From: a virus
Taxonomy: Duplodnaviria > Heunggongvirae > Uroviricota > Caudoviricetes
Reading direction: 5' to 3' (one strand)
IMG/VR virus record: IMGVR_UViG_2585427751_000006
Span: 1 to 4,282 of that record
DNA length: 4,282 nt
Positions 211 through 2,587 of this stretch are shown here, one piece after another (the first letter of the stretch is position 1; every line of letters starts with the position of its first letter). A program made the position numbers and the translations under genes. The notes under the pieces were generated by a model, which was given only the letters and a program-made list of their open reading frames with translations, had not been told where the DNA came from and did no database searches.

Positions 211-224
211 GCAGGATAAAAAAA

Positions 225-259
225 TGCCGCCGGTAAGGGAAAACAAGAAACCGGCGGCA
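225..259 (-). terminator. GC-rich hairpin (10-bp stem TGCCGCCGGT/ACCGGCGGCA, 15-nt loop) that is terminator-like only for minus-strand transcription
   Basis: Perfect inverted repeat at 225-234 and 250-259. An A7 run lies at 218-224, so the U-tract follows the hairpin only on the minus strand; on the plus strand it is followed by AAAAAG. The loop is long for a classic terminator. Confidence 0.3.
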
Positions 260-354
260 AAAAGATCGTTATATCCAAAGCAAAAAATGCAGTGCACCTT
301 TTTACCTAACAGATATTACCGGTGTCAACACCATGTCAATAATTGGGAGGGATA

Positions 355-537
355 ATGACATTTTTACAGCTTATTTTATTGTATTTCTGCACGGCAGTAT
401 GTGCGTTATATCTGGTGAGTGGTGGTTATAAGGCCATCAGAAATTATGTTCGCCGCAAAATTGAGGACGCAGCAGCTGAAAAACTCAGTAAAACAGCGCA
501 GGCAACTCCGCTCCCAAAAGACCCGACCCAGCCCTGA
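355..537 (+). CDS. small single-pass membrane protein, 60 aa (MTFLQLILLYFCTAVCALYLVSGGYKAIRNYVRRK...)
   Basis: ATG at 355 preceded by GGGAGGG (346-351). The ORF track starts at TTG 343, but the ATG with this SD is the more plausible start. Hydrophobic N-terminal ~25 residues followed by a charged tail. Stop at 535-537. Confidence 0.5.
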   Translation: MTFLQLILLYFCTAVCALYLVSGGYKAIRNYVRRKIEDAAAEKLSKTAQATPLPKDPTQP

Positions 538-572
538 TTGCAGGGCTTTATTCCCGCATAAGGAGGATATAC

Positions 573-827
573 ATGCCAGAAATTAAAGGCACCGTCACTG
601 AAGACCTGGTAAAACAGGCACTGTATTCCGGTGAAGTAAATAAGTTGCTGAAAGCGCAGGTCCGCAAGGATTTTGAGGCACAAATCGACACTTACGTTGA
701 TGAGGTGCTGGAAAAACTTATTGGGCCAGCAGCAGCGGCCAGTGATGCTGATAATGAACCGAAAACCGACGCGCAGCCAGAGCAACCAGAACCGGCTCAG
801 CCCGGAACTGACAGCACCATGATGTAA
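573..827 (+). CDS. hypothetical 84-aa protein with helical N-terminal half and acidic, Pro/Ala/Gln-rich C-terminal tail
   Basis: ATG at 573 with a strong SD AAGGAGG (560-566) at 6-nt spacing. Lies 35 nt downstream of the preceding ORF, consistent with an operon. Followed directly by an intrinsic terminator. Confidence 0.6.
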   Translation: MPEIKGTVTEDLVKQALYSGEVNKLLKAQVRKDFEAQIDTYVDEVLEKLIGPAAAASDADNEPKTDAQPEQPEPAQPGTDSTMM

Positions 828-833
828 CAATAC

Positions 834-866
834 AAACCGGCAGTTTCTCCTGTCGGTTTTATTTTC
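834..866 (+). terminator. Rho-independent terminator for the 355-827 operon
   Basis: Stem AAACCGGCAG (834-843) pairs with CTGTCGGTTT (850-859) including one G-T wobble; 6-nt loop TTTCTC; then T-tract TTTTATTTT (857-865), 7 nt after the stop codon. Confidence 0.65.
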
Positions 867-902
867 ATGGGCGCTTTATATACCAATCAGAGGACAATAA
901 TC

Positions 903-1103
903 ATGGACAAGAATAAAAAGCAACCTGATACCAAAGGCCTGGAAAGATTAAGCGCGGAAATTATCAATGCGCTACGTTCAGGACTTGATGAAGATACATT
1001 ACAGGATCGAAACTTCGCCACCGCAATGTGGATAGCTATGCAGATCCTGTGTACCCCAAGATGCGCTATTTTTGCGGTTCGCGAAGGTCAACTGACTCGC
1101 TGA
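903..1103 (+). CDS. hypothetical 66-aa protein (MDKNKKQPDTKGLERLSAEIINALRSGLDEDTLQDRNFATAMWIAMQILCTPRCAIFAVREGQLTR)
   Basis: ATG at 903 with GAGGA (890-894) 8 nt upstream. The ORF-track start at 867 lies inside the terminator T-tract and lacks an SD, so 903 is preferred. No recognisable family. Confidence 0.35.
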   Translation: MDKNKKQPDTKGLERLSAEIINALRSGLDEDTLQDRNFATAMWIAMQILCTPRCAIFAVREGQLTR

Positions 1104-1272
1104 TTGCACGAATTACATCAGAAAAGCACGCGTTCCATAACTGCATAGCGGATGAATCACCTGCTGTATGAAAAGAGGTAAAGTTACCCCTGGTGGATGT
1201 CATTGCTGCAATTGTAATATCAGCTGCAATTCGCGCAGCCTGTAACTTTGGGTCTGTGGTTAGTTTATCCAT
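1066..1272 (-). CDS. possible 68-aa hypothetical protein, convergent with and overlapping the 3' end of the 903-1103 ORF
   Basis: ATG at 1272-1270 (minus) preceded by AGGAAAA. No family recognised; coding status uncertain. Confidence 0.2.
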   Translation of the reverse strand: MDKLTTDPKLQAARIAADITIAAMTSTRGNFTSFHTAGDSSAMQLWNACFSDVIRAISESVDLREPQK

Positions 1273-1379
1273 TTTTCCTGCCTGAACAGATATATCTCTG
1301 CTTTACAGGAGACCGGGGAATATCATAGGATACGCCACGAGCTCGAAGTAAAGCATTGATGCAAGTTTTTACAGATTGA

Positions 1380-1415
1380 CCCAGCATAGTTCCAGCTATG
1401 CTGGGTTTCCCTTTT
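1380..1415 (+). terminator. terminator-like hairpin (10-bp perfect stem CCCAGCATAG/CTATGCTGGG, 6-nt loop) followed by TTTCCCTTTT
   Basis: Perfect inverted repeat 1380-1389 and 1396-1405. The 3' tail 1406-1415 is T-rich but interrupted by CCC. Orientation is plus strand, since the minus-strand downstream flank is not U-rich. No plus-strand ORF ends nearby. Confidence 0.4.
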
Positions 1416-1485
1416 ATGTAGTATCCTGTTGATTTGAAACATACTACATATGCGCGCGATCCTACCTTCACTGGATAAAAAGTCA

Positions 1486-1503
1486 ATAAAATGATCATTT
1501 TAT
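1486..1503. promoter_or_regulatory. 18-bp perfect palindrome ATAAAATGATCATTTTAT centred on a GATC (Dam) site; candidate dimeric regulator binding site
   Basis: The sequence 1486-1503 equals its own reverse complement. GATC at 1493-1496 sits at the dyad, with another GATC 8 bp downstream (1504-1507). Confidence 0.4.
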
Positions 1504-1610
1504 GATCGTTTTCACACCCTAAGTCTTCGTTTTCTTTTAGTAAATAATCACCTCCCTGAATCATTGTTGATGACTTTTCAATCTATTTGTTGTATCAATT
1601 AAACACATCG

Positions 1611-1635
1611 AATCGATCGTTTTTGTCGATCGATT
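1611..1635. promoter_or_regulatory. inverted repeat AATCGATCG-N7-CGATCGATT carrying two GATC sites, in the com-mom upstream region; candidate operator overlapping a putative promoter
   Basis: Perfect 9-bp arms at 1611-1619 and 1627-1635, spacer TTTTTGT. GATC at 1615-1618 and 1628-1631. A possible -35 TTGTCG (1623-1628) and -10 TATCAT (1648-1653) are 19 bp apart; this promoter assignment is speculative. Confidence 0.4.
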
Positions 1636-1678
1636 AGGCGAGAAAGATATCATCAACAAAGCAGGAGGTTATGCGGCC

Positions 1679-1879
1679 ATGTATCGAAACATACGGTGCC
1701 GACACTGCAACAAGTTACTGGCACGGGCCAGTTTCAGTTATCTGGAAGTAAAATGTCCGCGCTGTAAAACCCTCAATCAAATCACATCTCCGAGCGCCAC
1801 AGAGCACCCCACATACACAAGGAAATCCTGTCGTGGGGAACAGAAAACAAGTTACATCCCGTATCATCAGCACGCCTGA
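1679..1879 (+). CDS. com: Com-like zinc-finger translational activator (phage Mu Com family), 66 aa
   Basis: ATG at 1679 with AGGAGG (1663-1668) 10 nt upstream. Protein [34 protein letters not shown]... has Cys at 7, 10, 26 and 29 (CxxC-N15-CxxC). It shares the IRC.xCNKLL / SF / CPRCK / EHPT pattern with Mu Com as I recall that sequence. Its 3' end overlaps the next ORF by 47 nt, as com overlaps mom in Mu. Confidence 0.8.
1807..1838 (+). promoter_or_regulatory. putative translation-inhibitory stem-loop sequestering the mom SD and GTG start codon
   Basis: CCCCAC (1807-1812) can pair with GTGGGG (1833-1838), and the latter includes the GTG start at 1833-1835. The enclosed loop carries the SD AAGGAAA (1820-1826), which can itself pair with TCCTGT (1826-1831) in a smaller hairpin. 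No folding energy was computed. Confidence 0.3.
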
Positions 1880-2570
1880 ACTTATTCTCTATAACGACAA
1901 TATCGTCGGTTATGGCTCCCGTGAGTTACGGGTTGAGACAATAAGTTGCTGGCTGGCCCGACTGGTCATCGTCAATAAACATTACAGCCACCGTTTCGTA
2001 AATAACTCCTACCTTCATCTGGGTATATTTTCAGAACGAGAGCTGGTTGGCGTAATGCAATGGGGTTATGCCCTTAATCCAAACAGTGGAGCGCGCGTCG
2101 TAACCGGTACGCAGAACCGCGAATATATGGAGCTTAACCGGTTATGGCTGCATGACTGTATGCCGAGAAACTCCGAATCAAGGGCCATCAGTTACGCACT
2201 CAAACTTATCAGACAGCTTTATCCGCAGGTACAGTGGGTTCAGTCGTTTGCAGATGAGCGTTGTGGCTGTCTTGGTGTCGTGTATCAGGCAAGCAATTTT
2301 GATTATGTAGGCAGCCATGAATCAACATTCTATGAACTTGATGGCGAGTGGTATCACGAGATTTGCAGGAATGCCATTAAACGAGGCGGACAACGAGGTG
2401 AACATCTGAGGGCTAATATCGACAGAGCCAGTGTTCATAAGTTCCGACAGTTTCGTTACATCCGGTTTCTGAACAAGAGGGCCAGAAAACGCCTCAACAT
2501 AAAGCTATTCAAAGTCCAGCCTTACCCAAAACCCCAAACAGTTAAAACTGGTTTGAAAGAGAGTGAATGA
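1833..2570 (+). CDS. mom: Mom-like DNA-modification enzyme (acyltransferase-fold adenine-modifying protein), 245 aa
   Basis: 738-nt ORF starting at GTG 1833, with no in-frame ATG until far downstream; SD AAGGA 7 nt upstream. It lies immediately downstream of and overlapping a Com homologue, and its size is close to Mu Mom. The call rests mainly on this arrangement; I cannot confirm Mom motifs from memory. Confidence 0.75.
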
Positions 2571-2587
2571 GCGCTTAAAAACTCATT

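Follow-up and report, generated by a model that had tools for sequence, protein, structure and literature searches.

A probable right end of an Sp18-family Mu-like prophage inserted in the 3' part of yaeF in Escherichia coli

The DNA analyzed here (the window, 4,282 nt, positions 1 to 4,282 of IMG/VR virus record IMGVR_UViG_2585427751_000006) corresponds to contig JOQJ01000096.1 over its full length, in reverse complement; this contig comes from a short-read draft assembly. We conclude with high confidence that positions 1 to 2698 form the right end of a transposable, Mu-like prophage of the Sp18 family and that this prophage entered the host gene yaeF by transposition, in its 3' part, after codon 249 of 274. 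The element is of an ordinary, already described kind, found in a new position; the mobile phage itself is common, and its insertion here is rare and specific to one lineage. An original prediction, made from the sequence of the window, had placed a horizontally acquired accessory segment at positions 211 to 2587, replacing nlpE as the expected neighbor of yaeF.

The boundary between phage and host DNA

When the whole window was compared by megablast with 5426 complete E. coli genomes, at most 63% of it was matched in one place; positions 1 to 2698-2706 had their matches in prophage regions scattered over the chromosomes, and the remainder matched yaeF-proS everywhere. The yaeF junction of the window was found in 0 of the 5426 genomes, and an uninterrupted yaeF-proS was present in 5415. 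With a junction-spanning query (positions 2560 to 3560), the alignments in 5415 genomes began only at query base 140 (window position 2699), with an identity of up to 100%. From this position on, which lies 78 nt inside K-12 yaeF, the yaeF-proS sequence of K-12 is 100% identical to the window. The last phage base is 2698, and host DNA starts at 2699.

A three-way alignment and the printed junctions always gave the element terminus as ...AAATCGCCGCGCTATA, and individual prophage copies agree with the window as far as 2698-2700. The right end is identical at seven unrelated loci, the flanks diverge immediately past it, and the DNA beyond it differs in the window, FORC_069, DLI.5a/TOE17, HCP4S3_I4, Sakai, JNEC-KY203, 13E0780, and 6535WT. 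As the element ends at the same base (2698) at many unrelated loci, the arrangement is not due to chance, and a shared terminus followed by differing host DNA makes the accessory segment 1 to 2698, not 211 to 2587. The segment first proposed was indeed foreign DNA, but its right boundary fell 111 bp short. Foreign DNA also runs from position 1, with a nanS-p gene cut by the window edge, in agreement with the suggestion that the left boundary lay outside.

Base composition by itself is a weak signal. The overall difference is modest, with 45.0% GC (guanine plus cytosine) for 1 to 2698 against 51.0% for 2699 to 4282, and only positions 1289 to 1678 and the 128-bp phage end are clearly AT-rich. 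In the composition profile, GC drops to 33 to 40% around 1300 to 1700, against 53 to 56% in proS; for 1289 to 1678, the value is 38.5%, against 53.6% for proS and 49.1% for yaeF. The AT-richness invoked in favor of foreign origin is therefore real locally and modest over the segment as a whole. The Pfam matches, the composition profile, and the list of open reading frames (ORFs) bear out the reported com-mom genes, AT-rich spacer, and several small ORFs, and the spacer is made up of a phrog_26524 gene remnant and the region upstream of com-mom.

The window, at 4282 bp, makes up a whole contig of a draft assembly from short reads and ends in nanS-p, a gene reported from other prophages too (PMC10462455), so that it may be repeated in the source genome; a draft contig of this kind might wrongly join a prophage end from elsewhere to yaeF. 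We consider such an assembly chimera very improbable, as the same junction is shared by the three contigs retrieved (10579, 8446, and 4282 bp, each of which stops within nanS-p), the chimeric protein that it encodes occurs in four assemblies from at least two differently named isolates, and the join sits exactly where six other loci place the biological end of the element, and not at a repeat.

Disruption of yaeF

The host side of the junction contains the following two genes.

2588-3445, minus strand: chimeric yaeF ORF (285 aa); host codons 1-249 at 2699-3445, 36 phage-end codons at 2591-2698, stop at 2588-2590
3499-4282, minus strand: 3' part of proS; Pfam HGTP_anticodon, tRNA-synt_2b, and tRNA_edit; 100% identical to K-12

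In the ORF list, the yaeF frame appears as a minus-strand ORF at 2588-3499 with YaeF/C92 and NlpC/P60 matches in the Pfam scan. K-12 YaeF, a C92 permuted papain-like lipoprotein, has 274 aa, of which residues 1 to 249 are identical in the window ORF. Comparison of the translations showed that the 25 native C-terminal residues (250 to 274) have been exchanged for 36 unrelated residues encoded by the phage end, so that the native tail ...KPETQLQYVGHLKPGIYIKAGRFVGLTR becomes ...KPEYSAAIFLIPICISFDTAEKRRYATYLILNRRFSFGF in the chimera. Peptidase_C92 is still detected by Pfam in the N-terminal part, although the ORF is not a full-length YaeF. The gene is the disrupted target of the insertion and not an intact neighbor; the stop at 2588 had been taken as the native end of yaeF, but 2591 to 2698 is phage DNA and the native frame is broken after codon 249. 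proS, a core host gene upstream of yaeF on the minus strand, is unaffected by the insertion.

The chimeric YaeF protein was found in only four NCBI draft assemblies (in a collection of 15 billion proteins), whose isolates bear at least two different names, E. coli 5-172-05_S3_C1 and 4-203-08_S4_C3. In NCBI, the fusion ORF stands as an ordinary "nlpC/P60 family protein" (e.g., KDU61705.1), and these draft annotations do not mark yaeF as disrupted.

Element ends and target site duplication

The phage end and the host bases that adjoin it are as follows.

2571-2698, plus strand: phage right end (attR), 128 bp; three direct GTATCAAA repeats at 2617, 2652, and 2674, hairpin at 2601-2647, terminus ...GCGCTATA
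2699-2702, no strand: predicted right-hand copy of the 4-bp target duplication, TTCT, from six sibling insertions

The GTATCAAA repeats are presumed, by analogy with Mu, to be the transposase-binding sites of the right end. In the FORC_069 copy of the element, where the left end could be read, that end carries three inverted copies (TTTGATAC x3), so that repeated sites are found in both ends and are inverted between them, as is typical of Mu-like elements.

When the element is taken to run from T(G/A)TAACC to ...GCGCTATA, 4-bp direct repeats (TTAG, ACTG, TAAA, GGCG, TGCT, and CACG) flank six independent insertions of the family. A 5-bp target duplication such as that of Mu was rejected at all six insertions, after trying every possible shift of the boundary. 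Rebuilding the empty site at elfC with a 4-bp duplication gave a 72/72 match to the intact elfC of thousands of genomes. The right terminus of the family is TA-3', and the left end of the FORC_069/window lineage is also TA (TATAACC rather than TGTAACC). The 5-bp duplication and 5'-TG...CA-3' termini of phage Mu proper (Muvirus mu) were not found; the element works like Mu but is not Mu itself. In the Sakai record, the borders of Sp18 are drawn as for an imperfect 5-bp repeat, and we found no mention of a 4-bp duplication for the Sp18 family in the literature searched.

Distribution of the element

Of the 5426 complete genomes, 233 have the right end (1570 to 2698), in 295 places, with all alignments ending at window position 2698; a BLAST search with the left end also gave 233 genomes. 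The exact repressor protein of the FORC_069 prophage adjoins at least nine different host contexts, and there was no nlpE context among the 24 blocks with the longest contigs. This joining of the element end to unrelated host sequences in different genomes is the pattern left by transposition, and together with the absence of the junction from the complete genomes it upholds the view of the original prediction that the DNA is accessory and horizontally acquired: the arrangement is not core.

An atypical composition and a position between core genes would also suit a genomic island that had entered next to yaeF by site-specific recombination, with an integrase and an att site. We regard this as the least probable of the explanations considered, since neither the window nor the sibling element has an integrase, a tRNA, or an att-type repeat, and Rfam, at gathering thresholds, gave no hits in the window. 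The FORC_069 sibling carries MuA/MuB transposition genes and only a Gin-like invertase, which serves the tail-fiber segment. Moreover, the element occupies dozens of unrelated sites, often within genes, which is incompatible with site-specific integration; the site of insertion changes from strain to strain, and no complete genome has the element at yaeF.

TOE17 and DLI.5a, strains from different countries, have a family member at the same ypdB position. The TOE17 copy is about 21.6 kb long with several truncated structural genes, and it appears to be a decaying, vertically inherited copy.

Relatives of the element

The best match to the window is the copy in FORC_069, which is 99.9% identical (3 mismatches in 2698 bases) and closes off, on the right, a prophage of 39.2 kb lying within elfC, a fimbrial usher gene that it splits. 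The left part of this prophage codes for a repressor-like protein, a Ner-like helix-turn-helix protein, a protein with a "Mu transposase C-terminal domain" (MuA type), and an AAA ATPase with a MuB C-terminal domain. These are followed by Gam, Mor, lysozyme, spanins, Mu-type head and contractile-tail genes, and an invertible tail-fiber segment with a Gin-like invertase (recombinase), and the right part contains a DUF6645 protein (nanS-p), DUF1378, DUF826, com, and mom. A MuA-type DDE transposase and a MuB-type ATPase by the repressor were seen in the FORC_069 copy and in Sp18, the window covering the right end only. RefSeq also annotates a "tRNA-OTHER" in the FORC_069 prophage (L003 24013-24092, minus strand), between the head-morphogenesis and virion-morphogenesis genes.

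Sp18 of E. coli O157:H7 Sakai (NC_002695.2 5040971-5079729) is annotated as a "Mu-like phage" and interrupts sorM. It shares with the window family the invertase, a NanS-p-like protein of 680 aa, DUF1378, DUF826, the small minus-strand gene, com, mom, and the identical terminus ...GCGCTATA, with 96.7% identity to the window over 1294 to 2698. It differs in lacking 857 to 1293 and in having an intact phrog_26524 gene, which is truncated in the window. The window copy also stands apart from both the Sp18 and FORC_069 prophages in its site, in yaeF after codon 249. Sp18 has been described as apparently intact, efficiently packaged, not circularized, and not mitomycin inducible, like Mu, with spontaneous release (PMC2669165), and its relatives as having strain-specific integration sites (PMC7430833).

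With Mu itself, the family has in common com overlapping mom at the extreme right end, three repeated sites per end (the L1-L3/R1-R3 layout), and insertion by transposition. In contrast, com comes directly after gin in Mu, and in the window family about 3 kb of cargo (nanS-p, DUF1378, DUF826, and a variable slot) lies between them. The end repeats of Mu are of another sequence than the GTATCAAA type, its terminus is CA instead of TA, and its duplication is 5 bp instead of 4 bp. Beyond mom, nucleotide similarity between Mu and the window is below detection.

The com-mom operon and its control region

The right end of the element carries an anti-restriction operon of the Mu type, with these features.

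1440-1678, plus strand: predicted upstream control region of com-mom, AT-rich; five GATC (Dam) sites at 1458, 1493, 1504, 1615, and 1628
1679-1879, plus strand: com, predicted zinc-ribbon translational activator of mom; Pfam Zn_ribbon_Com (PF10122), 46.8 bits against a cutoff of 22.9
1833-2570, plus strand: mom, predicted DNA adenine-modifying anti-restriction enzyme; GTG start, overlaps com; Pfam Mom (PF25680), 259.6 bits against a cutoff of 27.1

The Mom match covers profile positions 1 to 202 of 202. Over 229 aa, the protein shares 79% identity with Mu Mom, and the residues at the positions of Mu R111 and S124 are conserved. Mu Mom has been shown to need both of these residues to modify adenine in a reaction that depends on Gly-tRNA(Gly) (PMC13219725). 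The full-length profile match and the conserved pair identify the window Mom, at the level of sequence, as a predicted member of the tRNA(Gly)-dependent adenine-modifying GNAT family. Com is 45% identical to Mu Com, and all four cysteines (CxxC...CxxC) are aligned. According to the model of the Com target, the mom GUG is enclosed in a hairpin with a CC(N)2-3GAG motif on its 5' side (PMC6483171). In the window, CCACAGAG (a CC(N)3GAG motif at 1797-1804) stands directly 5' of a predicted hairpin at 1807-1838 that pairs the mom GTG start. The four-cysteine zinc ribbon, the overlap of the gene with the start of mom, and the target motif before the hairpin are thus all found, as would be expected of a Com protein.

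The control region has five GATC sites where 0.78 is expected (Poisson P = 0.0012), and its alignment with the Mu sequence upstream of com shows AATCGATCG-N-GATCGATTA to be conserved. Mu likewise has, upstream of com, the control element ATCGATCG...GATCGAT with its GATC. At 1610-1636, there is a palindromic pair, ATCGATCG ... CGATCGAT, with two GATC sites, which is kept in the Mu mom upstream region within surrounding sequence that cannot be aligned. In Mu, the corresponding upstream region is where Dam methylation and OxyR control mom. A sigma-70 consensus scan gave 3 promoter-like sites against 5.8 in shuffled sequences, and no com-mom promoter was assigned. If the biology of Mu applies, com-mom would be a late operon under Dam/OxyR and activator control, Com would bind the mRNA just upstream of the hairpin that hides the mom GTG and turn on the translation of mom, and Mom would modify adenines of the phage DNA, using Gly-tRNA(Gly), allowing it to escape host restriction.

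Insertion inside yaeF and the fate of nlpE

In K-12, the end of nlpE lies 199 bp from the 3' end of yaeF, close to the 200 bp or so assumed beforehand, and its absence next to yaeF in the window had been read as a replacement. This part of the prediction is not supported: the anatomy is that of a transposable phage inserted inside yaeF. The six sibling insertions that could be read at both ends are all simple, with a 4-bp duplication and both halves of the target gene kept. If the insertion in yaeF is of this kind, nlpE and the last 78 nt of yaeF would lie intact beyond the left end of the phage, displaced about 36.5 kb to the left of the window and not deleted. A simple insertion that pushed nlpE about 39 kb away is, by analogy with these siblings, far more likely than a replacement. 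Under it, the expected left junction is ...AACTGCGTTTCT (the yaeF remnant) running into TRTAACCAGGTGAATCATTTGATACC... (the phage left end), i.e., a left flank ...GTAACTGCGTTTCT followed by T(G/A)TAACCAGGTGAATCATTTGATACC.

It is also conceivable that, behind a genuine phage end, only a remnant of the element is left, with nlpE and the 3' end of yaeF to its left deleted or rearranged, which would be a true replacement. The junction contigs stop in nanS-p, with the left junction beyond them, deleted derivatives exist in the family (TOE17, about 21.6 kb), and Mu-type elements are known to cause adjacent deletions. We nevertheless find this unlikely, given that six of six siblings inserted simply, each with a matching 4-bp duplication and with the two halves of the target still in place, and that only 3 of 2698 positions differ from the intact FORC_069 prophage, which suggests that the insertion is recent.

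Several points weigh against our interpretation of the window as the end of a simply inserted Mu-like prophage. Neither the window nor the three junction contigs reach the left end of this copy, its transposase genes, or the other copy of the duplication, so that the completeness of the prophage and the survival of nlpE are inferred. Some members of the family are internally deleted, TOE17 among them. Compared with Mu proper, the family has 4-bp and not 5-bp duplications, TA-3' and not CA-3', and end repeats unrelated in sequence. Lastly, the hairpin over the mom start is no more stable than shuffled controls (z = -0.70), so the hairpin model of the mom start is one suggested by analogy with Mu and not by energy.

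Cargo genes and the variable slot

Upstream of com-mom, the window contains the end of a probable sialate O-acetylesterase gene and several small genes.

1-210, plus strand: 3' end (last 69 codons and stop) of a probable NanS-p-type sialate O-acetylesterase gene; Pfam DUF6645 (C-terminal, lectin-like domain), 69.9 bits
355-537, plus strand: DUF1378 small protein gene, 60 aa; Pfam PF07125, 112.6 bits; phrog_494; so annotated in FORC_069
573-827, plus strand: DUF826 small protein gene, 84 aa; Pfam PF05696, 56.2 bits; phrog_311
860-1293, no strand: variable slot, not in Sakai Sp18; contains a 66-aa ORF at 903-1103 (plus strand)
1289-1564, minus strand: N-terminal part of a truncated phrog_26524 gene (pseudogene); E value of 1.3e-43, profile positions 1-90 of 135

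The ORF at 1-210 has no cysteine and, as had been suspected, is not NlpE; it is the C terminus of a DUF6645 protein, probably of the NanS-p type. The window holds only its last 69 aa, and the SGNH/SASA catalytic domain that accompanies the C-terminal lectin-like domain in a NanS-p protein was seen in the FORC_069 sibling. This full-length protein of 684 aa matches NanS (PDB 3pt5) over residues 110 to 428 (E value of 1.8e-117) and the C-domain of NanS-p (6yp6) over residues 469 to 683 (E value of 1.1e-96), as well as Pfam SASA.

For the stretch from stx to holin S in Stx phages, nanS-p with a DUF826 or DUF1378 gene after it has been described (PMC10462455). The window has the same three families (nanS-p, DUF1378, and DUF826) in the same order as this lambdoid block, and lambdoid phages of Shigella/E. 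coli (e.g., POCJ13 and GER2) have about 80% nucleotide identity to window positions 1 to 234. The setting differs, as the block is located in the late region by stx and the lysis genes in the lambdoid phages and by the anti-restriction operon in this Mu-like phage. We infer that nanS-p/DUF1378/DUF826 is a cargo module that this phage shares with lambdoid Stx phages. Since com directly follows gin in Mu, the Sp18 family has gained about 3 kb of lambdoid-type cargo.

A terminator-like hairpin is found at 834-859, 3' of the DUF826 gene. Comparison by blastn with Sp18, TOE17, and HCP4S3 left 857 to 1293 without a match in Sp18. The 66-aa ORF of this slot is the hypothetical protein WP_001388991.1 in the FORC_069 annotation, and the ORF list has two minus-strand ORFs, at 1066-1272 and 1265-1564; neither the 66-aa ORF nor that at 1066-1272 had a Pfam or PHROG match. 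The phrog_26524 gene is a pseudogene without its C terminus in the RefSeq annotation of FORC_069 as well, and the intact gene (154 aa) is ECs_4996 in Sp18. The whole slot between DUF826 and com (857-1564) varies within the family, with a different 86-aa ORF in TOE17 and the intact 154-aa gene in Sp18. Inside the truncated minus-strand gene, a strong hairpin with a 13-bp stem, GACCCAGCATAGTT...AGCTATGCTGGGTT, lies on the plus strand at 1378-1407 and is followed by a T-rich tract; it could insulate com-mom against read-through from the upstream cargo genes.

Implications

The findings correct the annotation of this locus in two respects: the segment is a prophage end and not an island that replaces nlpE, and the deposited "intact" nlpC/P60 ORF is a phage-host fusion from a disrupted yaeF. 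For a few related E. coli isolates from human stool, the insertion provides a clean marker of their lineage. It is otherwise another example of Sp18-type phages freely hitting genes, with no bearing on any open question. We are evenly divided on the proposal that the transposition geometry of the Sp18 family differs from that of Mu (a 4-bp stagger and a TA-3' right terminus) and that the family captured the lambdoid nanS-p/DUF1378/DUF826 block beside its anti-restriction operon. Only one item is of somewhat wider interest, namely that the target duplications of the family are consistently 4 bp long; if this geometry is real and undescribed, it would be a small but concrete point for studies of MuA-type transpososomes.

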